A stretch of 64,000 bases of DNA from Schmidtea polychroa. Lineage: Eukaryota. The notes below the pieces were generated by a model. The model was not told where the DNA came from and did not search any database. It saw nothing but the letters and a program-made list of their open reading frames with translations. Where the stretch lies: the NCBI GenBank assembly GCA_044892525.1, contig CM097888.1:81840001-81904000 (forward strand), given 5' to 3'. Shown in pieces: positions 18,101-51,100 of the stretch; position 1 is the stretch's first letter, and each line of letters starts with the position of its first letter. Made by a program: the position numbers and the translations under genes.

Positions 18101-21100
18101 ATGTCTTTTTCCGTAATAATTCGACCATCTGCCGTCCTGAAAACCACGGCGTCATCGGCCTTTTTTACTAATCTGCAAAAAAAATTATTAAATTTTTTCT
18201 TTTATTATAAACAAATTTAATATTTCAATATAGCCTGTCTATCAAAACATTATAAAACATTTTGTATTAGCTCTAAACAGTTCTCAAATAGAACTTTTCT
18301 GAATATTCTAAATATTATACATTTAAACCCTGTAACGACTGACAGGAGTGACAAGAGGGTCGACTGTACCCAATTATCCCTTTCCGAGGGGCGACAAATT
18401 TCTGTCGGACATTCGAGATATCAGAGTTTATTATCTGTAACCGCAGTTAGTGATGAGTGAAACTTACAGATGACAACATCCGTTTTATAAATGTAGTCAG
18501 TAAATTATTTCAAGAAATATTTTTAGATGGATCTTTAGAAAGACACAATTAAATCATTAAATCATGGTTTGAGGTCAAATAATTAACCCTTGTAAGTAGC
18601 TATGTTACAGATGTGATCCATCCATGGTGAAAAGCCTTAAAGGATTTTTGTTCACAAAACCATGGATATTAAATTAGATTAAAAGAAATCTCACAAGTAC
18701 GATTGGACATTTAGGAAGTTTTTGGTACAATAGTTGGTTTCTAGGAAGGTTTTAACTTTGAATTTGGCAATGAAAAGATGTAGAAAAGCTATATACATTG
18801 AAAAAGTCGAAAAAACTAAAAGTGCCAAATTTCAAGTCAAGCAGTAAATGTCTAGAAGTAAAGTATCCACAAGTCGATAATTTGAATTACCTTTTTTTAT
18901 AGATTTTCAGATTATTGATCAATATTTTTTTTCTTATTGAGCACAAAATTTTGGAACTATTTTTTCAAGTGTTTGTTCAATATATATTTTTTCAATATCT
19001 TGATTTGTACGAATATTTATTTGTTTATTTAATAATAATCAGCATTTATAATTATCGGTTTACGAACATAAGGAACTTTTGTTGATCAATTGCAACTATT
19101 ATTTTATATTTATTATCCATTTAATATTATAACAGAATATCGTGAAATATTGTTTCTATAAATATTTTAATAAATGTTATCTACATATATAATTACTGTT
19201 GTACGTAAGTCCCTTACGTCTAGGGCTTGCAATACCGGGATCCCGGTATTACCGACATTTTTAATACCGTTCAATACCGGTATTAATGACCACTTAATAC
19301 CGGTCCGGTATTAAATTTTTTTGCTGTAAGTTAACATTCATATCATTTTTATTTAACTATTTTATTTTTTATAAGTAATTAGCATATGTTTAGGTGTTGT
19401 CATGTTTAAAGATTAAATCTAATTTTGAAATTTACGTACAGGTGGCCCTACTGAAGTAATTTGTTTTTTTTTACATTAAGAAAGAGCCTTTTCGTACGTT
19501 AATTTTTCTAATACTAAAAAAATACTAAAAAAGACACAAATTCACATAGCAAGCCGTTTCTATGGGAAATTATTGTTTTCTATTTTTCCAAATTTTCAAT
19601 ATTGAAGCTATGTTTTTTTTTATAAAGAATAGTTAGTTAGTTCAGTTGTAAAGTTTTTGAAAATTTAGAGAATTGTGTTTGTGTATAATATAAAAGTTAA
19701 AAAATATTTAAAATCATAATTATAATTAATAATCATTAATTCAATTGATAAATAGCAGATAGGTAAAGGTAAGTTAAAAGTGTGAAAATTAATTATTGTA
19801 TAAGTAAAATTTTTATTTTCTATATATTTATATAGATAGCGGCGCTATCATAGCGCACTGCTGCGGGTTTTTTAAAAATTAAAATTAATAAATAATGTTG
19901 GGCTGAGTCGAAAATTTAATCGTTGAAAAATAAGAAAGTAGGGAAGTAGAACATTAAGAAAAATAATAATAAAATAAATAAAATCAGAAATAAAATAGAA
20001 TAAGATATAAGGAAAATAATAATTAAGACATAAGAATTAAAACAAAAAATAAAATTAAGAAAAGATTAAAATAGAACAAGTTGACAAATAAATAAAGAGG
20101 AATTCAAGAAATAAAAAGGAAATTAAGGAAATAAATAGAAAAACATATTAAAAATAAAGAAAATAAGGAAAAAACAACCTAAAAACAAGAAAATTATATT
20201 AAATTAATAGAAATAAGCGGTACTCAACTCTGATTGGTCCGCACAAATAAGAATTTGATATATATACAACTACCAAAAACATTAAATTTACTATTAACCC
20301 CGAGCATTTCATAGGTAAGAAAAATGTTTACTGGTTTTACTATTAACCCCGAGCATTTCATAGACATCTACAACTCACGGAGACTTAATTCAAGGATCAG
20401 CAATACTAGTAGAGCAACAGTTAATTCGGAAAACTTCACAGCAATTCGAAATCAGTCACAGCAATCGACATTCGACGAACCATCATCAGACTAATTTGGA
20501 ACGACTAACGTTAATTTTCCGATTCAGCCTAATTCCATAGTAAGGGATTTTTATTTATGATATTGTTTTTCGAAGTTAATAGTAAATATGTATATTTGAT
20601 GAGCAATTAAACTTTTAAATTTAAACAGACTCTCTTTTCATTTGATCCCGAATAACGATTTTGATAAAGTAAATAGTTTAAATGTTTAAAAGTATTTATT
20701 GGTAACAGGTGAACTCTTACATAATTTTTATGGATATTTATTTTGAAGTGATAGTTTTATGATTTCTAATATTAACGAGAAACGTGGCGTTGAGATACTC
20801 CATGTCATGGTGTGAGGTGCCTTCGGGAGCTCAGCCGGTGGACATGGAGTATTTCAATCACGCAGCTAGATTGGGCCGAAATGTGAAGGCTTCTTCACGG
20901 GTCCAATTGCTGAAGGACTTAAAATCTGTCAGAGTACCGAAATATAGACCGAAAGGAAACCTTCTGAAATTTTCGAAAATAGGATATGTGCTTCACAGCG
21001 ACTGAGGGAGTTCTCATATTAACTCTGTATTGTCCAGAGTCGTCTTACAAGACATTCATGCCACTTCTGTCTATAAACCCGAACTTACCATGTGGGGGAA

Positions 21101-24100
21101 AATACCATTAAACATCCATCGCTGGTCTTCTAACATATCGAGAAGTCGAAATTGCATTCGGTAGATTTTTGAAAAAGTAAATCTAATTTAGGTCATCTCT
21201 TTCAGATGCGACATCCAAATCTTAGCATATGATGAGGAATTTACAATAAAGGAAAAGTAAAACATAAAACCACAATAATACTGTATTCAATCACATATAT
21301 TAACAAAATCTGGTAATACCATTGAATAATTTTCATGCTGTTGCGTCGAAATATCCACTACTGAAATATGCTTCATAGAGTCTAGTTGGCTGGTTCGTAG
21401 AGATCTTCCATCGTTCAAAAACATCCAATATTGAGGAAATTACTAGTCGTAGTAAATAAATCCAACATCATAAGCTCAGATGGGAATCGACACGCGATGT
21501 AACATTTGTAGTTCGCTCAGTAAGGTTGATAGTTACAGATAAAATTTCCATCGAATAGGCACCCATACATACAGACATACTGCTAACATAACTATGAGTA
21601 GCGTCATCCGGTCAGAAATATGCATGAGAAACAGCAGAATCATTCCGAATGCCTCTCACCGCAGGGAATGCCGCCATGTGTCACCCTCTCTAGGATTCTT
21701 AGTGTGTGAGTAGTAATCAGTGGTCATATTAGATAATGCTGACATGAGATGTGACTTCCAGATGACTGACTCTTAAATTTCACTACTGATAAAGGTCATT
21801 CGTACCACTAAAAAGATAAGCCAAAATAACCAGTAACCGACTACTAGGATAAGAGACTCTCTAAAGTGCACTCATTAAAGATAATTTTGCTTAAATTAAA
21901 TATTCTAAATAAAAATCGAAATTGTTGAAGGGGTATTTTAATTAATAACCGAAAATTCAAACCAAACTTTATAACTCAACCATAGGAAGTTTTACCTAAG
22001 TGTTGTAGAGGTTTATCGTAATTCTAATTAGATGTTACAAATAATAGTAGTAGCCTTCGAGCCAAACTTAAATTAACTAAAGCATCTACAGGAATTTTTG
22101 GGTTATAAAATAGCTAGTAATATTGTATTTAAATTTCTCATATTCCATGTAGATTACGTATTGTAATAGAAAACTAAATCCGATAACAAATTATTATGTA
22201 ATTACAATATTTTTACGATGCTATATTTCTACGACGATATCACCGTATGGTATGGATAAGGGGTAATCATAAAATAGTGACGCATAGTTTATACGAAATT
22301 ACGAGTTGTTACTTATTCCGCTACTTGAGGTAAGGGTGCAAGTTTTTACTAGTTGCATTTGGTCCAAAAACCTTATTTTGCATTAGAATAACAACAAATA
22401 ATCAGCGAAATTTAAACGAAGTGTAGTATAGTGTATTTGCAATGAAATAGGTTTATTCACTCCGGCATGAACAAATCCGTAAATTGCCTTTATGTGCGAT
22501 AGATAGAAATCCAACTCGAACGCGATAGACGAAAATTTAAATTTTTACAAATAATTTGCATTCGTCAGGGAAGCAATCAGGGCGTTGAGGAATAATTTTG
22601 TAAAGGATACGTAAAATATTAGTAATCAAGGGTGAAGGGAGGGATCCTGTTTCATCGACTCGTCTTGTTTTCTTCCAGCACTAAGTATCCAATAGCGAAT
22701 AAACCGTATATCTGATCCGAAATTTTTAGATATAGTCATCATAGTTTTCTTCTTTAGCCATCCATTATGTTATCAAACAACAACTCAGCTCTACGTCCCT
22801 GCTTCTCCTGCTCAGATAAAAATGCAGTGATTAAAGATCTTCAAGCCCAGATCGGTCGATATAAACGACAAATCGACGAGCTGGAAGGGACATGGTTTAG
22901 TCCCGCTCGGATGAAGGAGATCCAAAAGAAGCTCGATCGTAGCGAGCATTGCCGGGACGCGCTAATATCTGAGAGCCGTGCCCAAAGAAGTCTAATCAGA
23001 GAACAATCCGAGGCACTGCATAAGGTTTACGTGCAGGCGGCTACAACCCGAAAAATTGTGCAGATTCCCATCCGAGAGGCCGATGACATCTTTCCGCCTC
23101 ATCACAACCTTTCCTCGAATCCATCTCCACCGTTCAAGAGACCGTGCCGAGACTGCGTCGAAACCGAATTGTCTCCCCAGCGACCAGATGTTGTCATCAC
23201 GGGTACCAGTAAGCCCCCCACTGCTAGTCCATCCGTATCAGTCACCCTTCCGCAAGTGGCATCTTCAAGCAAACCCAAGCGAAAACAACTTTCTCGTGCA
23301 GAGCGCAAGAAGAGACAGCGCGAGCGCGCTACTACAAAGCCAAACATCCCATCAATAGAGGACTCAACTAACGATGGCAACTCTCACGTGTCCCTCGACC
23401 TAACAACGGGACCCTCGGCACGAATCATATCAGCCGCTGGTGTAACGTGGGAAGAGAACGCTTCCGAGTTCTTTAACCTCGACGAATTATTCGCCGACGC
23501 TGAATGGGAGAAACAATAAAACCCCAGTGGCGGTCAGGATGAGGAACAAGGATCCGATCTATGTTGATTATGGTGTTTTCTCTTCTTTCGACAAACATTA
23601 GTAAAGTGTACAGTTGAATCCTTATGTTATAACGTTGAAATTAATAAATCTTGTTGTCTTACACGTTTTCGTTCATGAATAATTATACTTTAATTAAGTG
23701 GGTGGGGTAGAGAACCCGCAAGATCTAGTGAGAAATTCCCAATTTGCATTCAGCGAATCCCGATAAGCGGTTGTGTAAGGAAATGGACGTAAGCCCTTCT
23801 ATCGGCAGTCGTGAATGGGAAGTCGAGGCCTCAGCAAGGAGTAGTTTTAAGGCAGAAGCTCACCTGCTTGCTGGCGTCTCGCCTGCATAGTGCAGTACCA
23901 ACGTGAAGTGATTCACGGGCACTATGTTGGAAGAAAGTTATGTGGGGTTTCACTCCAGGTTGACAAATCGGTGGCACCTTTTATTCGAGATGGACAATCA
24001 ACCCTTAGACCCGTCAACATGGTAGAGTGGTCAGCCGAGGTGTAACCCCAACATGATTTTTGGGGGCTCAGCCGGGATACAGTCGATTGAATTTCTATTA

Positions 24101-27100
24101 ACGAATGCGAAATTCACCGGGATTTTCATACAAAATTAAAGGGATTTATCACATCGATTTTCTGTTTTCGACCGACCATTGCTTGACGAATGCAAATTGA
24201 CTATTGATTATTAAATTATATTAGGAACTAAGTAGAGAAAATCAAAATGTAGATAATAGAAAAATTAAGGATATATATAAATAAAGGAGATAAAGTAGTC
24301 AAATTAAATAATTAACAATGGTTAAAGAAACCAATTAACGAATTAACTATTAATTTACTACATATTATTAAAACATTACTTTTCCAACAGCTATGACAGA
24401 ATTCGCGAACCAAATGCAACAACTGCTCAAGTTTATCGATATAGAAAACGACTCCCTAACAACACTGACGCATAAAAGAGAAAAAATCAACGCGATATTA
24501 CTACAAGCAATCGGACAAACACCAGTCGTACCTAATCCTATGATATTAGCCACAGGCCTAAGTCGCCCAGATGGGAAAATAAACCCCGAAACCGTATATC
24601 AGTGGTATCAAGAGAGATTGAACCACCCAACATTAAATCTAGATTATCAGCGTCTAAAAGACTCACTAAATACAATACCAGATGCAATCGAACAAAAAAT
24701 ACAGGAAAAAGTTAACCAATTACGAACTTGTATAGCCTGCAAACTCCGTCCTATTCGCGTATTATTCTTGCCGTGTGGACACCTCAGTCACTGTGAAGAG
24801 TGTGTAAAAGACCTAAAAAGATGCACGATGTGCAAATATGAAATAAAAGAGACCCATATGGTCTATTATGGCGAATGAAACGGCCGGCGATGTAACAGCA
24901 AGTATACGATGTTTGAACAAGAATGCATGAAATTGTTGAAGTAACACGTACTGTTAATGATTCAATCTTTATGTTTATGATAAATAAATTCGTCTTTAAA
25001 AAGTTTTGATGATTAGGACTAATAAAATTTGCATGACGAATGAATATTTGCGTGTTTGTTTGGTTTTATTCTTTTTCTTCGGAATCAAATGAAGAGAGGG
25101 TTGAATAACGTGGAATTAGTCCCAATATAGACTGCAGGGGTACAAACCGAGCCACCTTCGGGCGGTACGTCTTATTGCAAGAACCCGTTGGGAGGGGATA
25201 ACTGATCAACCCAAGTAAGAAGCGTAGGGCGGGGTACCATCGCATATGATGAGAAGTTTTTGCGACATGACTGATCACCATGCCAATGTAGAAATGGATC
25301 ATCGCGATCGTCGTGCGTTTTGAGCAAGGGGGGAAAGGGGAAACACTCCCAAGCGGTAAAGATTAAGTCGACAAATTAAAAGTAGACAGAGAAAATGGTA
25401 AACTAGAGTAAAAGAAGAAAAGAGAAATAGAAGCATGCAGAGCGAGGAATATTGAAGCCGAGCTGTCGAATAATCCAGCCGGTCAAGGAGGAAGACTGAG
25501 CTGTTGAATAGTGCCAGCCAGTCGTAAGGTCGAGTTGTGAAAAGTCCAACCGATCAGGAAGGAGGAAGATTGAGCTGTTGAATAGTGCCAGCCAGTCGTA
25601 AGGTCGAGTTGTGAAAAGTCCAACCGATCAGGAAGGAGGAAGATTGAGCTGTTGAATAGTGCCAGCCAGTCGTAAAGGCCTAGAAAAGCGGGAGATAGCA
25701 GTTAAGCTACAATGAGATAATATTTAAATTACTAGTGATATGGAATATTAAAGCTAGCTAGAACAAACTGAATGTAATTTTGAAAATTAGAGTTTAGAGA
25801 GGAAATAAACGAGCTCGTGGAAAAGAAAATAAGATTATAAGGAAAAAGGAAAGGGAAGAAGGAAACGAATTAAAGAGATAATAGAAAATAAAGAATAGAT
25901 GAAATGATGATAATGAGTAAAGAGGAAAGTAACTAACTAATTAAAGGGATCCCAGTGAAGTAGAGAAACTCTACGGAATATTTTTTTTGGTTAAACCGGG
26001 AAAATGCATTTTATTGGTTCCAGAGTAGAACCGAGCGTAATAATAGTGAATATGAAAAGTAAAATAGCGACAACAGCGCAAAAGGATTAGGAAAATGAAA
26101 GGGGGGTAATAAGCAGAGACCGACAACGACCTATTTTTACTATAATTGATAACGAATAGATAATTATTACGACTTTATAGATAATTGTTACTACCCCATA
26201 TAGATAATTTAAAATCGACGGAAAATACGGGCTGATGGGATATTATAAACCGCAGAAAGGATTTCACAAAAGATAGGGGAAGCACAAACAGAAACCTAAA
26301 AGGCGTCTGTTTTTGAATGTTGTAGAAAGAATGATGAAGTCGTGTAAGCAAATGCAACACGAGATCATTTTTTCATTTTAGATATCAAGCCAATCCAGCC
26401 AACCAAGACAATCTAGAACCTGCACAAAAGGAATTCGAAGAAATCGACAATCAACCAAGGATAAATCCATTCAGAACCCGCACCGAGAGACACAGCAACC
26501 GGAAGACTCCAGAACGGAAGAAGTATCAGCAGCCATCTGCCAAGGATTAGTAAATCTCCTCAGGACCTCAGTAGCAGATTCATACAGAATATTTATCGAA
26601 GGAAACACAATCAGAACCGAACGCGTCCAATTCAATAGCCGCTAATTACCAAGAAGCGTAAGGAAGGAATCACGGATAAACCCAATCTTAGATCTTCTAG
26701 TAAGCCAGGAGACGTATTATTTTCAGGAGACGAATTACAACAACTCAAAAGAGGACGATCCATTAAACATCAAAGAGGAATATCACAAGGATCCAGAAGA
26801 ACCAATCAAGTACCCATATTTGACCAAGAAAATCTCGGATATACCCCTAGTCGATCTCGAAGTAGAGAAAGTCTGTCCGATATCACTAATAGTTTAGCAA
26901 CGTCAACCGAAGAATTATCAGCCCAAAGTTTAGTCACATCGTTAGACAATTTAAAAGAAACAGACGAACCTAGAACACCAATCATGACGAATGTCGTAAA
27001 AACCGACGAGTATAAAGAGAAGTTCAGAGGAGAACCGTTCAACGGAAATGCAAACAAGCTAGCAACGTTCATAACTAATTTTGAAGTTTATATCACTGTG

Positions 27101-30100
27101 TGTGGATGGACACCCGAAGCAATTAGTAAAAGGATGCCGTTGTTTTTGTGCGATAGTGCATTAGAGGTATATTTAGAAGCTAAAGAGAGAGACACGAAAT
27201 TAGAAAAGTGGGAAGATATTAAAACATTCCTGAAGAAAACCTTCGGAGCCAGTAAGCCAATCAACCAGGCGTTGGGCGAACTAGCAAATAGGAAACAAAG
27301 AGCAAACGAATCGATAACATTATATGCCAGTGAATTGCGGAGATTAGCGAAGAAAGCAATGAATGGAAAATTACCCGAAGAAAATCTGATCGGTTATTTC
27401 ATAGAGGGATTACGCCGAGAAGAAGTAAGAGCCTCAGTAGGTTGTCAAATGTGCAAAACATTAGAGGAAGCCATAGATTGGGCTACAAGATGCGAGCTCC
27501 ACCTTCCAGCTCAAATGAATATTATGCAAGAGGAGGGAAGGATAGCGACAGCAATAGCGAAAGCGGATAACGGAGATAACAACAATCAAGAACCGAAAAT
27601 GAATCAATTTATACCAGGAGCGCACCAAATTTTCAAACCACCACAAGGACGATCAAACGGGAATAATGGTAATCGTAACAACCCGAATAATGAGAACAAT
27701 TTCAATAATCGGCGAAATATGAACGATAACAAGCAGTGCCGAACATGCGGTAAACCAGGACACTGGGACAGAGATTGTTATAGAAATTCAACTTGTAATC
27801 GTTGCGGACGGCGTGGACATACCGAAAATGTATGCCAATTGCGAGGCTGTTTTAACTGTGGTCAGCCAGGTCACATCTCCAGAGATTGCCGAGAAAGGGG
27901 CCAACAACAACGACCACCACAGCGAAATAATAATTATATAGCGAATCCGCAACGACAAAGTAACCCTAACGAAGGAAAACAAATGAACGTTATGCAGGAA
28001 ATTTCGCAGATGAAACAGATGATGCAACAAATGATGAGACCAAGACAAGAATCAGCACCACAACAAACCCAGAATATACGTATGATGAGGAGTACCGAAA
28101 ATCTCAACAATTATGAAGTGCATCAACATGTACAAGAATGGCAAAGGTTACAGGCCGAGGAAGAGAGGATAAAACAAGAACGCAACCAACAACGACAAGA
28201 ACAACCATTGCGAATAAATATGATGAAGTTAGTAAAAGACATGAAGAGCCAGTATTGCTACAATTACGGGAAAAGCCCAAGGGTAGTACCCATGACTGAA
28301 CCAGAAAAGGTAAAAGAAATAACAACGGAAATGAAAACAGAGAATTCAACCACGATTTTAAAAGGAAACCAGAGAATTCAGAAAATATTCTGGAAAAAGA
28401 TGAAGGATAAAATCGAAAAAGAACATAATAAAGCGAAAACCGAGACAGAAGATGAAAATAACAAGAGCAAGGAACAAACCAGTCAACTAAACCACCAAAT
28501 GCTACAAGAATCAGAATCAGAAGAAACAACAATATTCGAAAGAAAGAAACTAAAGAGAGTACCAAGGATGAGAAACTTGCAAATCAATATGATGAAAAGG
28601 ACAAAAGATGTAGCATCGTCAGACGAAGAAGAAGATTATGTAAGTAGTTTGGGTGGAGAAATACTACAGCCGAATGAAATAAGCGAACCCCCAAAAGGGG
28701 AAATCAAAGAGGAAGAAAGCGGAAACGAGATAACCAGTGAAAGTGAAGACGAAGATATCGAAATAAAGTTGAGAAAAGCAAGGGAGGAAGCGATAAAACA
28801 GGTAGTCGAAATACTCCCAGTAGTAGTGAGGAACCAGGAGTTCATCGACGTAATACCATTCAGGCGATTCGTACAAAAAGTGATGAAATTGGAAAGAAAC
28901 GAGAAAGATCTAATACCAAACGAGGAAAAATCAATTATAAAAAATTATATGGAAAAAATGAAGCAGGCCGATACCACGCGGTATGTAATAAAAATTGGAA
29001 CGAGTAGAGGACTTGAAAGAATGTGGATAAAAAATACAGTCACCGACGAACTTTTCGATTGGATACGAGAACATTTGGGAAGTTCGAGAAAGAAAGAATA
29101 TCTGTATCAATACCAAGGAGAACAGATCAAACCAGATATGCACTTAGTAGATGCACTAATATGGCCAGGAGAAACGCAAATACTGAAGTTGCATAAAGAA
29201 AAACAACCAGCCAACCTTTACGATTGGGCTAAAGATGCCAAGGCAGAATATGATTTTAATATCAAATTGAAATTAGAACAAATAAAACAATGTACTCTGA
29301 GACGAAACCTGGATAAGCTGATCAAACAAATTCAAGAACAAGTAGAAGACAACTGGGATTTACTCATCACCAGACGAGCCCCAGCCATGTACGAACTAAT
29401 GAGCCGGTTGCGAGATACAGAAATGCTCCGAATGAGTGATTGGAGAACCATAAATTTGATCCACAAATATGGAAGGTTAAAAGAAACCCAGCCACAGAGG
29501 TTGGAAATAACCATATGGTTACCGAACGAAGAAAAACGACGAATAAAAATGAGCAATCAGAGTACAGTGGACGACTTGGTATCAAAAATAAACCAAGAGA
29601 TAACGGAAAAGGTACGTAGCGAAAGTAGTGATGGTATGGTGGATGATGTAGTCATGATGTACGATAAGATAATATTACGAGCGGAGGACGACACCTCGCT
29701 AAGCGAAATGGGTATGTGGGACAATCATCAGATAATCAGGATAGTACCAATGGATGAATTCCGAACAAGAGATGTAACATATCAAAAAGAAATACGAGAC
29801 CGGATGAAAACGTTATATCAAAAATCTACAGAAATAATTGAAATCCACCAACAATGGTTAAAAGAAAAAGAGCTACAAGGAAAAATCACGAAATTAAATA
29901 CCAGATCCTGCAGACGAACCCCATGGGAAAGAGTGTGGAATGCAGAAAGTAAGGAATGGGAAATCCGGAAAGGAATCTTCGTAGAAACAGACATCGGTGA
30001 GACAGAAAGTGAATCGGAGGAAGAAGAAGAGGAACCCCCAGAATATGAAGAGGAAGCAAGGGGACAGACATCAGATGACGAAAGCGAGACGGATGTCACA

Positions 30101-33100
30101 TCAGAAAGCGAAAATGAAGCGAGACATATTCATGCAATGAGGAAAAAGGAACGTGAATATGCTGATATGGACGGCGAAGAAGCGACGGAAGCAAGAGAAC
30201 GAGAAGAGACAGAAAGGTATAAACAATTAGGCGATATCTTAGCAATGGGAGCGAAAAATCAAAAACGCCAGGTAGTAGCGTTGGCTAATATCATCTTAAA
30301 AACATCAGAGAATATCCACAATCTGAGAGGAATGGCAAAGGCAATAGAGGAATACCGGCAATATAATGAATGGTATCCAGAACAGCTAGAACAAATTATT
30401 CGAAAATGGAGAAATCAGGAATGGGCACAAGACACCCAGGAGAGGTATCACATCCGAATCAAGTATCCGGACAAGAGCATCGAGGAACTAGAGGTGCATC
30501 CAACAACAAAAATTAGAGAATTAAAAAAGAAATTAGCATATGAAACTCCATTCCATCTGCAACTGTTCGGAAAATCACTAGACGATAATGCAGACGTCGG
30601 GATAACACCCATGAGATTGGAAGAGACAAATGTATTAACAATGGCGGAAACGTTGGGGAAACCGTTAAAAAGGAAAAGTAAAATTATTAAACCAACAAAA
30701 GGCAGTTTGAGTACTCCAAGTCCGAACAAAGCACCAAATAAATCTAATGAAACTGAAGAAGTTGAAGAGATAATCCTGGAAGATAGTGACGATGAACCAG
30801 GAGAAAGATCACCGCTATTAGTGAGATGGCCGACAGGAGCCGAAATGTGGACTAATAACCAGCCATCAACGAGTTATCAACAACCAACGAAACTGAACAT
30901 CAAAGAAATCATCGACAATACTACGGAAACCGAAACGGATGAACAATTCCAGAAGCAAAGAGAACCAACGAAAGTAACACCAGAAAGTCAAACCGACAAA
31001 ATAATAGACGAATGGAATGAGTGGCTAAGAAATAACGATAGCTCATTACCCAGAACGGATAACGAAAGAAATCCGAATTACGAAAATACCAGAGAAGCCG
31101 GAACGATGATGGAAAAACGGGCAAAAGGAAGACCTAAGAAACAAGGAGAAAAGTCTGAGTTCAAAACCAAAGAACAATTAAAGCAAGAACAAGGGCAAGT
31201 TCGATTAGAAAAATTGGATAAAATAGTATGGGATCTAAAGGAAGCCCAACCAACGATCGAAAGAGGAGAAAAATGGATACGAGAATTGTTAAAAGATATG
31301 TTAATAATAACAAACCCACAACTTAGACGTTTGTGGCAACGGAAAGTAGCCAGTACGGAAGCTAGACAATTATGGCACACCATTTCGGGGATAATCCCAA
31401 AGTTAATCAAAGAGAAAACGAAAACCACCAAAACGGATTGGGACGAAACAAAGAGAGTGATTGAGCAGCTCACGACAAATGCAAATGATGACGAACATCA
31501 CCTAGTGGTAATCACGTATTTAATGTATAATTTGATGGGACTAGCGGCGAGGAAAATACCAAATAAACAGTTTGCAAATCATGTGGAAATGACCGTTTCA
31601 ATCATAGAGAATACTATTGAACCACATATTATTCGTGCAGGAGGATGGAAAAGACTGATACAAGCGCCACGGAAAAATGAGCAAGAAAGGTCGATGCAAG
31701 TTAGATTGAAAAAATTATTAAATGAACTAGAATGGGAACTACCGATGAAAGATCCCGCAAGCAGAAAAGCATCAATAAATTCGTTAATGATGACTATGAT
31801 GATATGGATGTTGTGCACAAGTGGAGCAACAGGTTTCACCATCTACGATTGTGATAATATGATAATGAGAGATAAATACTCATTGAGAGACATAGAAGAA
31901 TGCAGACAAGCCTCACCCAACAAATTGGACATCGTGAGAACAAAAGTTACTTACCATGTATATCAAGAATCAGATTTCATCAGAACGCAAGCAAGGGAAT
32001 GCGTAGTATCAAAAAAGGTACTCGCATATTACTGTGGACAATATTCGTATTCGACTCTTATACTACCCGGTCTGGATAAAGAAATCGTATCAATACAACG
32101 AGAGGATTGTAAAGAGCTATTTAGAACCGGAGCGCTAAAAATGCATAACGGAGTGACAATTCACGGACAAACTGGAATGATTAAAACCGAAAGTGTTTAC
32201 GTATCCGGAAAAGTAAAATCATCAGATGGGTCATGTAACGGGGGGACGTATACGATCCGAGGCGAGGTAATATCGGGAGTTGTAGTGATCGAGTCTTACA
32301 CGGTCGAATTAAAAGAATACGAAGCGCAATTTGACGCAAATAATTACCAAATGAAGACCAACCCAGCGTGTAAAGCTACAGAAAACGTATGCAGGACAGG
32401 AGTATCAACTATAATCTATGAGGCTAATACCCAAAAATGCCGACTCCAACTGTTAAAAAGTGCTTTGTTCAATGAAGTAAAAGGAGAAATATATGAGAAC
32501 GAGAACGACGAGGATGGAAACGACAGAGTGAGAATGCGAAATGGAAAACCAATGCCACCATCTCCCAGAGAAAAGAGACTTTCAACGCAGAAGACACCAA
32601 CAGCATTAATCACAGACGACCCAGATCTAGGTATGAGATTTATCAAAGAGAAAGAAACCACCAAATGTGACAGTATAGTATATAAAACCAATTACGCAGG
32701 TATCTATATGTCGAGACAAATAATCGATAGAGCAGTGGGAAAGATAGCAACGGAGGACGTAAAACTATACTTATATGCAAATAATAAAATGGATTTTCTA
32801 TTTCATCGCGGACAAACGACCTTGCAAAAAGTATATTACGATCTGATACAAAACGATTGTTCATTGAATAAAGAAATATTGAAAACAAAGCTAGCTATTG
32901 CGATAACGCACCCCGATAACACGATGCCATCACTCCCATTACCAGATGGACACTTTGGTAGAATGGTAGGAGAAGTGATGTACACATACCAGTGTACCAA
33001 GACGTATGCACGAATGCCAGAAAAATCCATACTACCCGAAAAGAGATGTGCAAATGAATTAGAAATCCGTTACAAAGGACAAAATCGATTCGTCCAACCA

Positions 33101-39100: not shown

Positions 39101-42100
39101 AGGAAATTCCACCTTGGACTGGGCAACCATACAGCCAAACTTAGAAATGATCAGATTTATTTGCAAAAATGCGACAAAAGAAGAAGTTGAAAATATGTGC
39201 AAAAACACATCTCAGTTTCAATGGAATACGGTACGGAAAAATCTAGAAGCAATGAAATTATTATTAACCTGGAGAGTACCACAAAATAATAAATATGCGA
39301 TAAACGTAAACGAATTCTACGAAAACGGAGAAAATGCGATGGTAAAGGATACCCTAACTAAGGGGGGGACGCCTAAAATTATTTTAATAGTATTAAATAG
39401 AGAAGACCTAAAATTCACGCAAAATCAGAACGAGCAACAACGAATTGGGAAACATCGTCGTATGCAATTGAGAGAGTTAGTTAAAGAATGGAATAGAAAG
39501 AGACATGCTGCAACGGGTAGAAAAGAGTTTGAATTCGAAGCAAAATTAGCAAGAAACAGAGTGCTAACAGCATATCGCAGATTATTGAACGATATAAATG
39601 TCGAGGACGACATTTTAAATGACAGCGGGGGAGATAAATACGATGACAATGATGGAAAAGGCCGGAAAGAGGATAAAGGGAAAAGAGAACCGGAAGAGGA
39701 TAAACCGGAAAACAAGGATTTGGATACGAAAAGAGAGGGAAACAGGCCGGGAACCAAGACCAAAGAGGAGGAAAAATCGAATAATGGAAAACAGAGGGTA
39801 TGCCTACCTTTCACTAACAAAGAAATAGAGACAAATATGATATTAATGATAATTATGCTTACCATGATAGAGTTAGTAACAGCTCAGGGAGGGACGAGAA
39901 CGATAAAAGAAACCAAAGAAGCGGAGAATCAAGATAGCAAAGAGGATGAACTAAAGCAAGAAAAGAAAAAGCAAACACAAGAGCAGCAGTGGGATTTAAA
40001 GGAAGAATGGGACTTAAAGGAAAGGTGCATACTAGGAAGATGCATGTCTAGAGCGTATCAGAAACTAGTACTGATAAATGAGGACACAGAACCAATAACA
40101 GAAGTAAGAATACAAGAAGCATACCGAAATCGAGACGGGAAGAGAATAACGAACGTCAAAGGAAAAGAGGTACACCTAGGAAAAGGTGGTGAAGTAGTAA
40201 TAACGCAGCTCCAACCAAGAAAAGAGCACAAAGTCTGTATTTCAAGATTAGGACCGGGTGAGAGATGCCATCAATATGTGACGCAGCAGCAGCCCCCGAA
40301 GGAATATACGGTTTGTATCTGGAGGAACGAATCAAAAAGAGAATGCCGACGATACCCGGGGAAAAGAGGAAAGAAAAGGAAAAACCACGACGAAAAGGAC
40401 GAAGGAGGAAAGCACAAGAAAACCGGCGAGGAAGCTCAGGACAACTATGTTTCGGAGGAAGAGATGGAAAAAATACAAAAGATGGCAAAGGAGGGTATGA
40501 ACGAGGAAATAGCAAGAATACGGGAAATGATGAAAGGAAATGGCAAAAGAGGAAACGAGAAAGGTACAGGAGCAATATCAACATTAACAAACAAGGAAAA
40601 ACCAGAGAGTATAAGCGTGAAGCAGATGATGTGGATCAGTGGGATAATAATAACAGGGGCATTCCTAATCATAACGGGGGGAACAATAAAAATAATTAAG
40701 GATAAACGACATCGCGGAGAACTAGAAATGACTCGAATCAGAAATTTCCAACATCGAGTGAAACGACCAAGTGATATCAAACAAGAACAGTGGGTGGAGG
40801 CCTGGAACGCTCAGCGCCCCCCAAACTCACGTATATAGAAAGGAATATGACTGTATATAATTGTAAAAAGTAAGTATATCTTATGTATATAACAGTACTA
40901 TATCTTTATATAAGCGCGGTATCAATATTATACAATAACGGGAATCATAAAATAAAATTAAATTTACATAAGAGTTGAAAAGTGTATATAAATTAGGAAT
41001 GGATCAAGGAAATAACGAAATGAACCACAATACCGTAACTGAAGAATTATGGAAGCAACAATGTGCCGTATTAGCACAATTAGTGTCCAATTTGCAAGAA
41101 CAAGGACTAACGATGCACAGAAACCTGATCGAGAGTATGAACAGAGGATTTAGTTATTTGAAGATAATTGAAGACCAGAGGTTAAAAATCGAACAAATGC
41201 AAAGAGAGATAGAGAGGATAACCCAATATAGCCGTCGACAGGAAATTGAAATAGACAGAATGATGGAGGAAGCAGAACAGACAGAAATAGAAGACTGGTC
41301 GGAATGGCTAATGAATAGAGAGGAGAGCGGACACGAAGCCGACTCTTCCGAACCCTAAACTAAACCTAGCTTAAAATGTAAACAATTGTAAATAAAATAT
41401 CGAACCTGTATCGATAAGAACTATTTGTACATATAATTATAGAATGGATAAACGACAAAGAGAAGAGTTCAGAGAGATTGTCGAGCAAGTCCGAAAATCT
41501 ACAACGATCAGAATACACAAACATGTTATGTGCGGAATATGTGAAAAGTTGTTAAAGGAACCTCACCAAACGCAATGTGGATGCAGAGTATGTAAAGAAT
41601 GTATCAGTGAAGCAATAAAAAATAGACCACAGAGGTGCCCGGTGTGTAAAGAGACACTAATATCGAGTTTAGAAGACACTAACGAGGATAAAGCCGCAGT
41701 GAAAGACATGTTAAACACCAACCTGGGATGCAAAAATGCCCCATGCGAATGGAAAGGAGTAATATGGAAGGTAGTACAACATATGGGAGAATGTATGTAC
41801 AGAATTGGCCAGTGTGAAAGGTGCCATAAAACCATTCGAGCAAGCGAAGAAAAAGAGCATCAAAGGCAGTGTGAAGAGAGATTGGAAAGATGTGAACACT
41901 GTGGAGAAATAGATACGTGGAAAAATCTCACCCTCAAACATCACAATGTCCAAGAGGAGAGAGTATGTGCAGAGTTCAGTGGGGAATGCCCAAACGGATG
42001 TAACCAAGGGGAAATAATGAAGGTGGCACAGCATCTAAGGGAATGCGAAAAGAAAAGAATGACATGTGTACTAGGTAGATGGGGTTGTCAGAAACTACTA

Positions 42101-45100
42101 CACCGAGGTGAGTTACCACATCATTTAGTAGGAAATGCTTCAACTCACGCAGAAATGTGGTCGACTGCGTTACAAGAAAGCGAAGAGAAAGTAAAACAAA
42201 TGGAGATAGAGATAACATCGTTGAAAGTGTTAGTCAAAGAACTACTAGAAGAAAGGAAAGCGTTCGAGGAAGCCCGAGCAAACATAAAGATGCAAATAAA
42301 CCGAACAGAAATCAGTAATAATCAGGCCAAGGAGCTACATCAGAAAATACGAGAAATAAATCTAAATGAGATAACCCCAACAGCACCCTACATATGGAAA
42401 ATAACGGGAGTAAAAGAAAGAATACGAAAAGCAAAAACCGGAGAAGAGACAAGAATAACAAGTCCTACATTCCATTCTTGGAAAAATGGGTACAAAATGA
42501 AAATGAAGATATATCCCAACGGGGACGGAACCGGATTAGATACGCACTTTTCGATTTTCTTTCTGTTATGTAAAGGAGAATACGACGAAATATTAGAATG
42601 GCCGTTCCAGGCAAAAATCGATATTACGCTGATGAACAACCGAAGTATACATGAGCAAAGCTTCAAAACAACGGGGAATCAAATAGCTTACCAGAGGCCC
42701 CTCAACGAAGAAGGATCAGCAACAGGAGCACCTACGTTCATCTCACAACAAAGAGTAGAAGATATGGCGAGAAATGATACCATATATATCAAGATGACCG
42801 TGAGGAAAGAGGAGAAGGGTAGAACGGAGTAACCAATCGAATAATGTTGTATATAATAATCTGTATATATCGGTGTATATAACCAATAAAATATTATATA
42901 ATAATAGTATGAAAACCCTAAATACGAAAACCCAAAAATGATGCGAAAATTTCCCAAGAAACAGTAAATAATGAATAAATTCCTTTTTCATAATAAAAAG
43001 ATTAATCGATGTCTATGATTTAGAGATGACACAAGAGAAAATAACCGAAATTGCGATAGACCCAACCAATGTCAACAAGACACAAATTCCCCGAGAACAT
43101 AACAAAAAATGGAACAAAGTAATGTTCCAACTAACTAATCTCACCCGAAATCACATCGAAGAAACTAGAGAAGATGAGAATAGTCAATACCAATGGTTAA
43201 TACACAACTTAAGAGCGGAAGCAGAAGCATGCAAAAGAGCATCAAAATGGGCGTCACTAGAAAATACCCGCCAAGAAGCACACAGCCACTACTTAAAGCA
43301 GCTAGTGCAGGAAGCGAGAAAGAGACTTACCGATGAGAACACCAAGCGCGAAGCGGAAAAACGAATAGAAGACAGGAAAATGATGCACTTAGTGGCAGAA
43401 GCGAGAAAATGGAAAAGACAAAACAGAGAAATGAAAAAAGAGATGAAAGAATTGCCCATGAGACTCGGATATGAAAGCGAACAAGGTAAATGGGAAGAGA
43501 ATTTAATAATAAAGGAAGAATTGAAAAGGTTGAGAAAGGTCGCCGCCCGAAGCCAAACCTGGCAAACAAAGGCTATGGAATTTGAGCGACATTTGGCATT
43601 AAAATGCGACATAAGAGAGCACGAGAATGCCGCAATGGAAGAAATGATAACCCAACAAGCAGGACGGATTGTGGAATTGGTAAATCAGGTCGGAGAGATG
43701 AAAAGAGACCTTAATGGATTACAAGGATCGTTAGAACAAAGAAACATGGTCCTAGCGGGAAAAAACAGAAAATTAGAAAACGAGAGGAAAATGTATACCG
43801 AAAATATCAAAAACTTGGAAATAGAAATTGAAAAATGGAAGGGCGACGAGAAAATCAAGGCCCTAGACAAACAGATAGAGGCGAAAGATGAAGAGACAAG
43901 GTATCTCACCTATCTGCTCGACGAGGAATTGAATATCACTCGAGCTCTAAGAGACGAAGTTAGTGAATTGAGAGCTCAAATTCCCCAATATTACCTACCA
44001 TACGACCCTATTGCGATACAGTTACATTCCGCGGTCGATAGTGATGAAGGTTATGTAGGCCAGGAGGAAACCTTCGTATGAGGGTGGATGAAAAGATGAA
44101 AAACTAAAAACCGGGACGTATATCCCAAACAAAAAAAAAAAAAATTTAAAGTATTGTAAAAGTATTCAAGGGACTGTAACCCAAACTATTAAATTTTATA
44201 TCAATGTATACGTATAAGTCGCACTATAGCGCACCATTAACTGTACATATTATAGATATGAAAATCGAGGAAATGATAGAAATTATGAGCGACATAGAAG
44301 AGGGAGAGATTGAGGCAGAAACAACAGAAACACAAACGCTAAAGGCCGAGTTACGGGAAGAGAAATACGAAAACGGGAGATTAATAAACAAATACCTGGA
44401 GGACCGGAAAATGATAAAGGTGTTAAAGAAAGAGTGCGAAGCGTTGGGGGAAATAAAAAGAGAAACGGAAGAGGAAAATGAATGGCTACACGAACAAAGG
44501 AAGCGAGGGAAAAACTGGGAAAAGATAGCGGAAGAACTATGGAAAGAGAGGGCAAGCTTCAAAGCAAAGGAGGTAATCCAAGACTACTGGAAAACTGAGG
44601 CGAAGGAGCGCCAAACAGCTATAAATAAATTAAAACGACAACTAGAAGAAAACCAACGGGAAAGTAAAGAAATGAGGAAGTGGGTCCGCAAATATAGAGA
44701 AATAGAAAGAAAACATCAACAACAAAATTACCTGCAAGAAAACGAACAAGATCTCCTACAAATCGAGCTAAAAAGAAACCTTGAAAAGAAAAGGGAAGAA
44801 ATTAGACGCTTGGAAAAGGAAATTAGACATCTAAAGAGAGAAGCCCGTGAAAAAGACCGACAATTGGAAATGCTGCCCGAGTTAAGACACAGGGTAATTA
44901 ACGCAGAGTCCACCTTGATGAGAATCGGCGAAAATAATCCAAATCAGAACCATTAAATTAAGGGTCATTAAAACCAATTGTAAATAAACATAATGAATGT
45001 ATAATAGTATCATGCGAGGCGAGATGATGATAACAATGATGGTATTGATGATTCTGATGGAGAGCAAACAGATAGACGCCCAACCGAAAATCGTACGAGA

Positions 45101-48100
45101 TTACCGAAATCAAAATCAAGAACCTAAACAAGAATCCAGTCAATGCACATACCCGATGACCGTAAAAACCCATATCATCCAAACCATTCAATCAACCCGA
45201 TCACACATCAACAACATCCAAACAATGTGTAAAAAGAATCCCATTTGTAAAATGATAAACAAACAAATCCTCGAACAAATTCAACAATTCGACCAGTTGG
45301 AACAACAAATGCAACAAGAGAATTTTGGAAATCTGGTAGAAAAGCCAAAAATACCTCCCGAAATCAATGACACCCATTATCTCATATATGTGGTGATCGC
45401 AGAGACCCTCCTCCTATGTCTACCAATATTCATGAAGATTTACGAAATTCGAAATAGATGTAGAGTCTCGACATCAATAAGAGTAACCTCGAACCAAAAT
45501 CCTCAAGAAGTGCCCCTGACAAATCTTAACCCAACCCCATTCCGACCTCGAACCCCGAGTAATCAACCAATCCAGCCGAAATCTAATAGTCAGACCTATC
45601 TCAACATCAATACCCAAACCAACCAACAGCCGCCAGCAGAAGCATCAATGGTTAACAGTTCATAGACTCTAATTCAAACATTTGTGTTATTATATGTGGA
45701 AACTTTTATTGTACGTACAAACTATCACCTTAAGTGATACTTGCTTGGTCTTGCTTTGACCTTGATCTTACAATAAAATTTTTATCATTGTTGTATAATT
45801 TTCGTGTTCGTGTTATATTTTTTTTTGAATGAATGAATTAAGTTAATTATGCAATTGCGGGACGCAATTTTGATGGGTCCCCGAGTGATTTGTTGGGCTG
45901 AGTCGAAAATTTAATCGTTGAAAAATAAGAAAGTAGGGAAGTAGAACATTAAGAAAAATAATAATAAAATAAATAAAATCAGAAATAAAATAGAATAAGA
46001 TATAAGGAAAATAATAATTAAGACATAAGAATTAAAACAAAAAATAAAATTAAGAAAAGATTAAAATAGAACAAGTTGACAAATAAATAAAGAGGAATTC
46101 AAGAAATAAAAAGGAAATTAAGGAAATAAATAGAAAAACATATTAAAAATAAAGAAAATAAGGAAAAAACAACCTAAAAACAAGAAAATTATATTAAATT
46201 AATAGAAATAAGCGGTACTCAACTCTGATTGGTCCGCACAAATAAGAATTTGATATATATACAACTACCAAAAACATTAAATTTACTATTAACCCCGAGC
46301 ATTTCATAGGTAAGAAAAATGTTTACTGGTTTTACTATTAACCCCGAGCATTTCATAGACATCTACAACTCACGGAGACTTAATTCAAGGATCAGCAATA
46401 CTAGTAGAGCAACAGTTAATTCGGAAAACTTCACAGCAATTCGAAATCAGTCACAGCAATCGACATTCGACGAACCATCATCAGACTAATTTGGAACGAC
46501 TAACGTTAATTTTCCGATTCAGCCTAATTCCATAGTAAGGGATTTTTATTTATGATATTGTTTTTCGAAGTTAATAGTAAATATGTATATTTGATGAGCA
46601 ATTAAACTTTTAAATTTAAACAGACTCTCTTTTCATTTGATCCCGAATAACGATTTTGATAAAGTAAATAGTTTAAATGTTTAAAAGTATTTATTGGTAA
46701 CAGGTGAACTCTTACATAATTTTTATGGATATTTATTTTGAAGTGATAGTTTTATGATTTCTAATATTAACGAGAAACGTGGCGTTGAGATACTCCATGT
46801 CATGGTGTGAGGTGCCTTCGGGAGCTCAGCCGGTGGACATGGAGTATTTCAATCACGCAGCTAGATTGGGCCGAAATGTGAAGGCTTCTTCACGGGTCCA
46901 ATTGCTGAAGGACTTAAAATCTGTCAGAGTACCGAAATATAGACCGAAAGGAAACCTTCTGAAATTTTCGAAAATAGGATATGTGCTTCACAGCGACTGA
47001 GGGAGTTCTCATATTAACTCTGTATTGTCCAGAGTCGTCTTACAAGACATTCATGCCACTTCTGTCTATAAACCCGAACTTACCATGTGGGGGAAAATAC
47101 CATTAAACATCCATCGCTGGTCTTCTAACATATCGAGAAGTCGAAATTGCATTCGGTAGATTTTTGAAAAAGTAAATCTAATTTAGGTCATCTCTTTCAG
47201 ATGCGACATCCAAATCTTAGCATATGATGAGGAATTTACAATAAAGGAAAAGTAAAACATAAAACCACAATAATACTGTATTCAATCACATATATTAACA
47301 AAATCTGGTAATACCATTGAATAATTTTCATGCTGTTGCGTCGAAATATCCACTACTGAAATATGCTTCATAGAGTCTAGTTGGCTGGTTCGTAGAGATC
47401 TTCCATCGTTCAAAAACATCCAATATTGAGGAAATTACTAGTCGTAGTAAATAAATCCAACATCATAAGCTCAGATGGGAATCGACACGCGATGTAACAT
47501 TTGTAGTTCGCTCAGTAAGGTTGATAGTTACAGATAAAATTTCCATCGAATAGGCACCCATACATACAGACATACTGCTAACATAACTATGAGTAGCGTC
47601 ATCCGGTCAGAAATATGCATGAGAAACAGCAGAATCATTCCGAATGCCTCTCACCGCAGGGAATGCCGCCATGTGTCACCCTCTCTAGGATTCTTAGTGT
47701 GTGAGTAGTAATCAGTGGTCATATTAGATAATGCTGACATGAGATGTGACTTCCAGATGACTGACTCTTAAATTTCACTACTGATAAAGGTCATTCGTAC
47801 CACTAAAAAGATAAGCCAAAATAACCAGTAACCGACTACTAGGATAAGAGACTCTCTAAAGTGCACTCATTAAAGATAATTTTGCTTAAATTAAATATTC
47901 TAAATAAAAATCGAAATTGTTGAAGGGGTATTTTAATTAATAACCGAAAATTCAAACCAAACTTTATAACTCAACCATAGGAAGTTTTACCTAAGTGTTG
48001 TAGAGGTTTATCGTAATTCTAATTAGATGTTACAAATAATAGTAGTAGCCTTCGAGCCAAACTTAAATTAACTAAAGCATCTACAGGAATTTTTGGGTTA

Positions 48101-51100
48101 TAAAATAGCTAGTAATATTGTATTTAAATTTCTCATATTCCATGTAGATTACGTATTGTAATAGAAAACTAAATCCGATAACAAATTATTATGTAATTAC
48201 AATATTTTTACGATGCTATATTTCTACGACGATATCACCGTATGGTATGGATAAGGGGTAATCATAAAATAGTGACGCATAGTTTATACGAAATTACGAG
48301 TTGTTACTTATTCCGCTACTTGAGGTAAGGGTGCAAGTTTTTACTAGTTGCATTTGGTCCAAAAACCTTATTTTGCATTAGAATAACAACAAATAATCAG
48401 CGAAATTTAAACGAAGTGTAGTATAGTGTATTTGCAATGAAATAGGTTTATTCACTCCGGCATGAACAAATCCGTAAATTGCCTTTATGTGCGATAGATA
48501 GAAATCCAACTCGAACGCGATAGACGAAAATTTAAATTTTTACAAATAATTTGCATTCGTCAGGGAAGCAATCAGGGCGTTGAGGAATAATTTTGTAAAG
48601 GATACGTAAAATATTAGTAATCAAGGGTGAAGGGAGGGATCCTGTTTCATCGACTCGTCTTGTTTTCTTCCAGCACTAAGTATCCAATAGCGAATAAACC
48701 GTATATCTGATCCGAAATTTTTAGATATAGTCATCATAGTTTTCTTCTTTAGCCATCCATTATGTTATCAAACAACAACTCAGCTCTACGTCCCTGCTTC
48801 TCCTGCTCAGATAAAAATGCAGTGATTAAAGATCTTCAAGCCCAGATCGGTCGATATAAACGACAAATCGACGAGCTGGAAGGGACATGGTTTAGTCCCG
48901 CTCGGATGAAGGAGATCCAAAAGAAGCTCGATCGTAGCGAGCATTGCCGGGACGCGCTAATATCTGAGAGCCGTGCCCAAAGAAGTCTAATCAGAGAACA
49001 ATCCGAGGCACTGCATAAGGTTTACGTGCAGGCGGCTACAACCCGAAAAATTGTGCAGATTCCCATCCGAGAGGCCGATGACATCTTTCCGCCTCATCAC
49101 AACCTTTCCTCGAATCCATCTCCACCGTTCAAGAGACCGTGCCGAGACTGCGTCGAAACCGAATTGTCTCCCCAGCGACCAGATGTTGTCATCACGGGTA
49201 CCAGTAAGCCCCCCACTGCTAGTCCATCCGTATCAGTCACCCTTCCGCAAGTGGCATCTTCAAGCAAACCCAAGCGAAAACAACTTTCTCGTGCAGAGCG
49301 CAAGAAGAGACAGCGCGAGCGCGCTACTACAAAGCCAAACATCCCATCAATAGAGGACTCAACTAACGATGGCAACTCTCACGTGTCCCTCGACCTAACA
49401 ACGGGACCCTCGGCACGAATCATATCAGCCGCTGGTGTAACGTGGGAAGAGAACGCTTCCGAGTTCTTTAACCTCGACGAATTATTCGCCGACGCTGAAT
49501 GGGAGAAACAATAAAACCCCAGTGGCGGTCAGGATGAGGAACAAGGATCCGATCTATGTTGATTATGGTGTTTTCTCTTCTTTCGACAAACATTAGTAAA
49601 GTGTACAGTTGAATCCTTATGTTATAACGTTGAAATTAATAAATCTTGTTGTCTTACACGTTTTCGTTCATGAATAATTATACTTTAATTAAGTGGGTGG
49701 GGTAGAGAACCCGCAAGATCTAGTGAGAAATTCCCAATTTGCATTCAGCGAATCCCGATAAGCGGTTGTGTAAGGAAATGGACGTAAGCCCTTCTATCGG
49801 CAGTCGTGAATGGGAAGTCGAGGCCTCAGCAAGGAGTAGTTTTAAGGCAGAAGCTCACCTGCTTGCTGGCGTCTCGCCTGCATAGTGCAGTACCAACGTG
49901 AAGTGATTCACGGGCACTATGTTGGAAGAAAGTTATGTGGGGTTTCACTCCAGGTTGACAAATCGGTGGCACCTTTTATTCGAGATGGACAATCAACCCT
50001 TAGACCCGTCAACATGGTAGAGTGGTCAGCCGAGGTGTAACCCCAACAATAATAATAAAGAATAGCAAGATTTCTGCCGTTTTAATAAGTGGGTACAAAT
50101 ATTCAAAAAATTCTGTAATTTACTTAAAGTTAAAACGCTGTTTTTTAGCCATGGAAAACTATGTTTTTGAGGAAAAATCAGCTGATGAAAATTCCGTATG
50201 GTTCTATTTTCTTCGTGAGAAAAGGGACAAATATCAAAATGTAAGAAGTGTAACAAAGTAATAAAGACGCAAGGAGGTAGTACAAGTGGTTTGCATACCC
50301 ACCTAAAGACACTCCACCAAATTAATTTAAAAAAAAGGAATGCTCCGAGCTCCAACCTTCTGATTGAAATTGAGCCAGAACTATCAACTTCTAAAGTGAA
50401 CAAAGTTTCTAGCGGGAAAATAACAACATTTTTCGTTTCGGAAACGGACAATTCTTTGTCTGCAGTTTTAGCTCGTATGACGGCATGTGACGGTTTGTCG
50501 TTTAACATATTTTGCACTTCCGTGGATATCAGAAAAGGTTTAACTGCCAGAGGGTATGAAAATATACCAAAATCTATAAACTCTATAAAACATTTAGTTG
50601 TGCAGTACAGTGAAAAAATTGGTGCAAATATGATTAAAGAGTTAGAATCTCAAATTCTTTCGGGACAACGATTTAGTCTTACATTTGATGAATGGACATC
50701 GGTAAAAAACCGACGTTATTTAAATATAAATGTTCATGCTGGCATCAAGAAATTCTGGAACCTAGGATTAGTTCGCGTGCAAGGATCATTGCCTGCAGAA
50801 AAGTGTGTTGCCCTCGTTGAAGAAAGGCTTAAATTATTCCAAGTTTCTTTAAATAAACACATTGTGTGCATTACAACCGATGGTGCATCTGTCATGACCA
50901 AAGTTGGAAAGTTGATTTGTGCAAGAAAACAACTTTGCTTAGTTCACGGAATTCAATTGGCTGTCATTAAGGTTTTATATATAAATATGATACACTAAAA
51001 TTTAGAAAATGAACATTCTAATTGTAACGAAGATGATAACCAGTATACAAGTGATGAAAATGATAGTGATCTTGATGATAATAGTTTATCCATACTTCAA

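Follow-up and report, generated by a model that had tools for sequence, protein, structure and literature searches.

A BIR-less Burro-type Gypsy family in Schmidtea polychroa with an in-frame gB-like env and Bcl-2-fold, RING and TRAF cargo

Structure of the Element and Its Insertion Site

The analyzed window, a stretch of 64,000 nt from the Schmidtea polychroa genome (GCA_044892525.1, contig CM097888.1, positions 81,840,001 to 81,904,000), contains a Gypsy-type retroelement of 30,153 bp at positions 19,896–50,048. It lies on the forward strand, as do all features described below unless otherwise stated. The element is a very young copy, with a single frameshift, of an active high-copy family and is almost certainly of the Burro kind known from planarians. 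The family likely spreads between cells in enveloped particles, and dampening of cell-death and stress signaling is the likely role of its Bcl-2-fold, RING and TRAF proteins.

Two long terminal repeats (LTRs) of 4,158 bp, which begin with TG and end with CA, bound the element (5' LTR, 19,896–24,053; 3' LTR, 45,891–50,048). They show no mismatch to each other over their full length. The element is flanked by a 4-bp target-site duplication (TSD), ATAA (19,892–19,895 and 50,049–50,052), and interrupts a hAT DNA transposon, the left part of which is found at 19,220–19,895 and the right part, with zf-BED and hATC domains, at 50,049–52,442. The empty site is seen in other hAT copies, as all four that were examined have the left flank joined directly to the right flank. 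TSDs of 4 bp were also present in 8/8 other copies of the same family with both ends located. The 18-nt primer-binding site (PBS, 24,061–24,078) starts 7 nt inside the LTR end and is complementary to the 3' end of the tRNA-Pro(TGG) of the same genome. The element contains no N. A Gypsy element of this size with a TSD, a PBS and identical LTRs had been proposed in an initial annotation, and this description holds.

The LTRs, the TSD, the tRNA PBS, the order protease (PR), reverse transcriptase (RT), RNase H (RH) and integrase (IN), and the catalytic motifs are those of Ty3/gypsy elements. No polypurine tract was found before the 3' LTR in the window family (A), its diverged subfamily A' or the related family C, all of which have a conserved GC-rich stretch there instead. 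Its lack leaves the Ty3/gypsy placement by RT and gene order unaltered. The GC-rich stretch may form a hairpin (45,850–45,890) with one compensatory change in A' and weak folding scores; as a replacement for the polypurine tract it was rejected, the folding z-scores (-2.4 to +1.7) not being convincing.

Families A, A', B and C all have the PBS at a distance of 6–8 nt from the inner end of the 5' LTR (24,054–24,078 in the window), where 0–3 nt is usual. Family B has a different tRNA primer from the window family. Genes for tRNA-Pro(TGG) form a long tandem array with 475-bp spacing at 130.90–130.95 Mb of C1 in the same genome, and the corresponding pattern has 2,164 matches genome-wide. The middle of the LTR (20,915–22,767) occurs as at least two types that cannot be aligned among copies with ≈98% identical internal regions. 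One internally deleted copy is a recombinant, with LTRs ≈75% like those of the window, an internal part that is 99% identical and a near-identical LTR pair. The leader contains a 74-bp tandem repeat in 2.6 copies (25,485–25,675). A search against Rfam gave no match.

Coding Content

The polyprotein of the window copy is split into two frames. The first (26,984–36,766; 3,260 aa) starts with Retrotrans_gag and three CCHC knuckles (27,137–27,889), followed by three ubiquitin-like (Ubl) domains (28,970–30,670; individually 28,970–29,209, 29,498–29,773, and 30,431–30,670), a Bcl-2-fold domain with a BH2-like GGW motif (31,250–31,690) and env (31,856–33,598), a predicted gB-like class III fusion ectodomain with a transmembrane (TM) helix placed in frame between Gag and PR. 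PR, RT, and RH with their catalytic motifs (34,172–36,163) and the start of integrase complete this frame. The second frame (36,696–40,838) encodes the integrase core, two ankyrin blocks, an internal signal-like stretch (39,825–39,893), an ectodomain, a TM segment (40,623–40,697) and a tail.

The frame shifts at an A-run in the integrase zinc-binding domain (36,485–36,700), at ≈36.6 kb. The window copy is broken here and the shift is not programmed, since none of the 21 examined copies that cover the zinc finger shares the frame of the window there. A scan with the post-integrase ectodomain as query gave 402 candidates, of which 150 were scored; in 69 of these a single frame extends over 4,700 aa or more, and the short frame was seen in only three, window included. 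A programmed frameshift was accordingly rejected. The shift may be a mutation or an assembly slip in the A-run, and the window copy cannot make the whole integrase-ankyrin-membrane tail from its main frame. The claim in the initial annotation of intact open reading frames (ORFs) does not hold for the main polyprotein of the window copy. A recurring frame of 3,334 aa belongs to family B, which is shorter and distinct.

Env matches Pfam PF24664 (E 3e-67) and has a predicted TM segment. Its structural model (predicted local distance difference test, pLDDT, 87; alignment of 102 sequences) matches herpesvirus glycoprotein B (gB; Foldseek E 1e-12, TM-score ≈0.39), and by this model env is therefore a class III fusogen-like protein. 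Its relatives in the protein library are similar env-PR-RT polyproteins, followed by stand-alone glycoproteins of ≈660 aa at 20–28% identity.

The Bcl-2-fold domain is weak by Pfam sequence search (E 0.03–0.08) and a single-sequence PDB search of the region gave no match, so that profiles and fold were required. A profile of the region matched Bcl-xL (E 9e-4), with Bcl-2 family members as all 60 of the best matches listed. For the model (pLDDT 77), VIA gives Z 13.5 with a root-mean-square deviation of 2.9 over 137 aa, and the top 34 matches all have a Bcl-2 fold. The third Ubl domain matches Pfam ubiquitin weakly (E 0.004). A pooled profile of eight segments (three from the window and five from relatives) matches ubiquitin, ISG15 and RAD23, and the first two domains rest on this profile. 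The linker between PR and RT, where the Burro kind has a dUTPase-like domain, is present and constrained but gave no Pfam match. The ankyrin repeats behind integrase were confirmed as a domain of generic type, with no IkB among the best 60 of 170 PDB matches.

The stand-alone genes surround the polyprotein. Upstream of gag, a 161-aa gene (24,393–24,878) encodes a coiled coil and an IAP-type C3HC4 RING (Pfam zf-C3HC4_3, E 3.5e-11), for which the RINGs of cIAP2, cIAP1 and XIAP are the best PDB matches; Pfam gave no BIR domain in this gene. Open homologs of it exist in subfamily A' (43%) and family C (30%). A related RING is also found in a 205-aa ORF (L076:3911-4528) outside the Burro copies examined. 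Downstream of the polyprotein there are a 119-aa orphan ORF (40,999–41,358) conserved in A' (66%) and C (32%), an intronless full-length TRAF of 462 aa with RING, zinc fingers, coiled coil and MATH (41,444–42,832), a 351-aa coiled-coil ORF (43,026–44,081), a 250-aa coiled-coil ORF (44,204–44,956) whose start may be later, and a 222-aa ORF with signal-like and TM-like stretches (44,997–45,665), which is the least conserved gene.

Each LTR encodes a further ORF of 250 aa (22,767–23,519, second copy 48,762–49,514) with a CxxC motif, a coiled coil, a basic stretch and an acidic end. No known family or homolog was found for it in family searches, one of them limited to proteins of 137–438 aa. Open homologs with 41–69% identity are present in other LTR types, and the ORF is a candidate regulator. 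The LTR ORF and its family C counterpart (L081:6589-7068) share a TWFSP motif.

The small genes may be made from spliced RNAs, as AG was found by eye within 10 nt before the in-frame ATG in 6/7 of them. With a strict splice-acceptor rule, 3/7 small genes pass, compared to 30 of 547 background ATGs.

Most of the domains in the initial annotation were recovered: the Bcl-2-like domain by profile and fold, the full-length TRAF by domain search, the ubiquitin-like domains by Pfam (third) and pooled profile, and the fusogen by PF24664 and its gB-like fold. The IAP-type ligase keeps its RING but has no BIR domain, and the ankyrin repeats are real but generic, going by the best 60 of their 170 PDB matches. 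An FN3-like domain had also been suggested; for the post-integrase ectodomain, Pfam, the ESM Atlas and a profile search of the PDB gave no match of this kind. FN3-like motifs can be seen by eye in two relatives (P0007 and P0011).

Selection Across the Family

Twenty-four copies were examined (per-copy identities available for 16), chosen from the best genome matches, a choice that favors young intact ones. The LTR pairs are at least 99.94% identical in 21/21 copies and fully identical in 14. Selection within the family was measured as the ratio of nonsynonymous to synonymous substitution rates (dN/dS) from variants shared among up to 22 copies plus the window. Nonsynonymous and synonymous shared variants numbered 2/52 for env, 0/17 for integrase and 8/38 for RT-RH. 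For the other parts of the polyprotein they numbered 11/29 (Ubl), 4/12 (Bcl-2), 28/50 (ankyrin) and 23/37 (post-integrase membrane part), and for the separate genes 21/41 (LTR ORF, dN/dS 0.22), 15/25 (351-aa ORF) and 14/13 (TRAF, dN/dS 0.40, p 0.014). The frame of the window's 250-aa coiled-coil ORF has a stop in 6/22 copies.

A second comparison was made with all five examined copies of subfamily A', in which 49–90% of the silent sites are different. Protein identity is 97% for RT, 94–95% for the Bcl-2 domain, 91–92% for Ubl and 90% for env, followed by ankyrin (82%), membrane tail (81%), TRAF (68–69%), RING and LTR ORF (together 40–45%, with RING at 40–43%) and the 222-aa ORF (26%). No stops were found in the parts aligned to A'. 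The TRAF dN/dS in this comparison is 0.06–0.09; dS is near saturation, which makes the ratios rough, while their direction is clear. Env (dN/dS 0.01–0.04) and most of the cargo are under purifying selection, both within and between subfamilies.

The initial annotation had named decayed or neutrally evolving cargo and a chimeric assembly as outcomes that would speak against a functional system, and we found neither. A neutrally carried cargo, or an internal region created by chimeric assembly, is hardly credible: the window copy is frameshifted and a few copies are deleted or recombinant, but ≈20 copies align collinearly at ≈98% throughout the internal part, paired LTRs lie ≈26 kb apart in most of 40 matches, all 30 bins are covered by contigs from three runs, and low dN/dS in the stand-alone genes too refutes neutrality for most genes. 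No contig bridging the left junction of the element was among the matches listed, and no data set known to be of RNA was among those listed as carrying the element.

Relatives in the Same Genome and Known Systems

The RT phylogeny that had been proposed for this element was made as an RT-RH tree of 24 rows without named reference sequences, and places the window family as sister to family C of the same genome (100/100). Family C measures 35 kb in one copy, has at least 150 BIR matches, carries MATH inside the polyprotein and has a BIR-RING gene after TRAF, which is the published layout of Burro1. About 60 of 150 scored MATH matches in the genome sit in frames of family C lengths. A cluster of many short (≈180–210 aa) open MATH frames was seen apart from frames of Burro length, at ≈105–124 Mb of C2. 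Family B is shorter (≈19 kb) with no ankyrin or TRAF match, and its env is nearly identical to that of Smed_errantivirus_2 (≈3 of 200 residues different by eye).

Burro1/GYPSM1 and Burro-2 to -4 of S. mediterranea resemble the window element in their length of >30 kb and their long LTRs (Jurka 2007; Grohme 2018; both as summarized in PMC6431247). They also have, like the window family, one polyprotein of ≈4,600–4,900 aa with Gag, three CCHC knuckles, Ubl, Bcl-2, in-frame env, PR-RT-RH-IN and ankyrin, as well as accessory genes of coiled-coil and TRAF/IAP type. The window element shares with the Burro kind its length with multi-kb LTRs, the cargo set, the planarian host and, at the family level, the polyprotein with env between gag and pol. 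Unlike Burro1/GYPSM1 it has no BIR and no MATH inside the polyprotein; TRAF is present only as a full downstream gene, and a RING-only gene lies upstream of gag. The window family is a BIR-less sister family of Burro1, and was compared with Burro-2, -3 and -4 through their published description.

Much of this architecture is already in print. Section 7 of the 2019 review describes BIR, MATH-TRAF, ankyrin, Bcl-2, Ubl and in-frame env in planarian Burro elements, and puts forward both a provirus hypothesis and meddling with apoptosis and ubiquitin (PMC6431247). The novelty considered in the initial annotation is reduced by this, as the domain set, layout and provirus idea were published for Burro. 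An ORF encoded in the LTR, a membrane protein behind integrase and dN/dS values do not appear in the same review. Our literature searches, with Grohme 2018 and Lee et al. 2026 outside their scope, turned up no dN/dS and no such ORF for Burro; these two publications may already describe the family, its LTR ORF or its membrane tail.

A class III env of gB-like type, placed between gag and pol, and many young copies are also seen in the HSV/gB-type GAG-ENV-POL errantiviruses of Platyhelminthes (Chary and Hayashi, PMC13524379, excerpts), and the window family has the defining trait of this type, as its gB-like env is intact and precedes pol. It is distinct from all six S. mediterranea errantiviruses listed there; the nearest of the six env pieces, Smed_errantivirus_5, is ≈55% identical over 182 aa by eye. 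The words Burro and Bcl are absent from the main text, and cargo is not discussed under them. A Burro-like element of Dugesia tigrina has MATH-TRAF as a separate accessory ORF outside the polyprotein, as in the window (PMC6431247). In D. tigrina this ORF has an upstream position and the knuckles of Gag number two, whereas in the window the ORF is downstream and there are three knuckles.

BEL/Pao elements with a chuvirus-like glycoprotein are likewise retroelements carrying a glycoprotein related to Jingchuvirales, but belong to a different superfamily (PMC7642597; PMC10084718). Viral Bcl-2 proteins have the Bcl-2 fold in common with the window element, with a similarity at the fold level and 8–16% identity. 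BEL/Pao elements with chuvirus-like glycoproteins are not known to carry cargo like that of the window element. The Bcl-2, IAP and ankyrin proteins of pox-, herpes- and baculoviruses come from unrelated large DNA viruses and serve as a functional comparison for keeping host cells alive.

Proposed Function

Following general LTR-element biology, an LTR-driven RNA would be reverse transcribed from a tRNA-Pro primer and integrated with a 4-bp TSD. From the hydrophobic segments, including an env signal stretch picked by eye, the polyprotein of ≈4,600 aa would cross the endoplasmic reticulum membrane twice. Its Gag-Ubl-Bcl-2 and Pol-ankyrin parts would then face the cytosol, and the lumen would receive the fusogen and a second membrane protein. 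Cleavage by signal peptidase and by the protease of the element might follow and yield Gag-Ubl-Bcl-2, env, Pol-ankyrin and the second membrane protein.

Selection on env is as strong as on RT, for which entry into other cells would be the best explanation; going by these sequence comparisons, we consider such a use of env somewhat more probable than not. The selection on the Bcl-2, RING and TRAF proteins is likewise likely best explained by their keeping entered cells alive. An anti-apoptotic role of the Bcl-2 domain itself has about even odds. The fold does not give the function, because the BH1 NWGR motif is missing and Bcl-2 folds also serve non-apoptotic roles, among them A52, B14 and A46 in the list of structural matches. 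As the family also has no BIR, the route may differ from that of Burro1.

Several points weigh against the spread of an enveloped element with cell-protecting cargo. Besides the missing BH1 motif, the non-apoptotic Bcl-2 folds and the choice of copies, the anti-apoptotic gene of Burro1 that has been tested carries the BIR that the window family lacks. Polishing or gene conversion may contribute to the identity of the LTRs, and 81 of the 150 scored copies have shorter frames. Within the family, selection is weak or not significant for the 250-aa coiled-coil ORF (dN/dS 0.64) and the 222-aa ORF (0.45), and is not significant for RING, with one nonsynonymous and three synonymous shared variants and 14/4 private ones.

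The cargo could instead be kept mainly for the benefit of the host, through stem-cell survival; env would then work within the cell or in the fusion of cells, and not in free particles. A protective effect against apoptosis of stem cells is reported for the IAP of Burro1 (B-IAP), together with a contribution to stem-cell maintenance and regeneration (second-hand, excerpts of PMC13465017 citing Lee et al. 2026), and particles are not described for Burro in PMC6431247 or in excerpts of PMC8532177, which place Burro1 and Burro4 under PIWI control. We nevertheless find host benefit unlikely to be the main reason. Many dispersed and still-inserting copies, from two subfamilies whose LTR pairs are near-identical, are under selection, a pattern to be expected if the genes work for the element, and env is constrained like RT and stays beside Gag and Pol in distant relatives.

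The initial annotation had seen in the cargo a kit in the style of large viruses, directed with IkB-like ankyrins against TNFR/TLR-NF-kB signaling. A functional enveloped element with host-directed cargo is favored by the env fold and by selection, while this choice of target is weak. The full TRAF and the ankyrin repeats would fit, and planarian TRAFs are reported to be wound- and TBK1-induced (PMC13563047, excerpts). NF-kB is an improbable target even so, because clear homologs of it are reported missing in planarians (PMC13563047, excerpts), as are canonical TLRs (PMC7958881, excerpts). A Rel-domain search of the same genome, run without a positive control, gave no match. The ankyrins are fused behind integrase, with no IkB among the best 60 of their 170 PDB matches, and the kit as a whole is improbable too.

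Enveloped spread with cargo that protects the entered cell remains our preferred reading. In a wider and rather doubtful form of it, Burro elements would be live enveloped planarian viruses. Their gB-like fusogen, together with a second surface protein, would carry them from one cell to the next, and they would employ a Bcl-2 fold that matches RT in conservation, an IAP-type ligase lacking BIR and a regulator encoded in the LTR. Their many intronless TRAF genes would account for much of the TRAF expansion in planarians and of the wound-induced TRAF transcripts. Between 121 and 282 MATH transcripts have been reported (PMC7586133, excerpts). Many of the TRAF, IAP and ankyrin transcripts of planarians may come from such elements, with consequences for RNA interference and expression studies of regeneration and immunity. 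The 2019 review (PMC6431247) left the functionality of env and cargo open, and the copy comparisons made here are population-level evidence for it. Burro families gain, lose and move modules, and a family without B-IAP, the only cargo gene reported as tested, leaves the Bcl-2 fold, TRAF, RING and LTR ORF as testable candidates.

Other Features of the Window

Short inverted-repeat elements, probably miniature inverted-repeat transposable elements, are found at 1,616–1,721, 6,769–6,869 and 12,097–12,598. A 250-aa ORF with repeats of ≈62 aa and no clear Pfam family lies on the reverse strand at 53,453–54,205. Finally, a fragment at 63,706–63,971 is ≈80–84% like the 3' end of the LTR in inverted orientation, and is probably another family member starting at the edge of the window.

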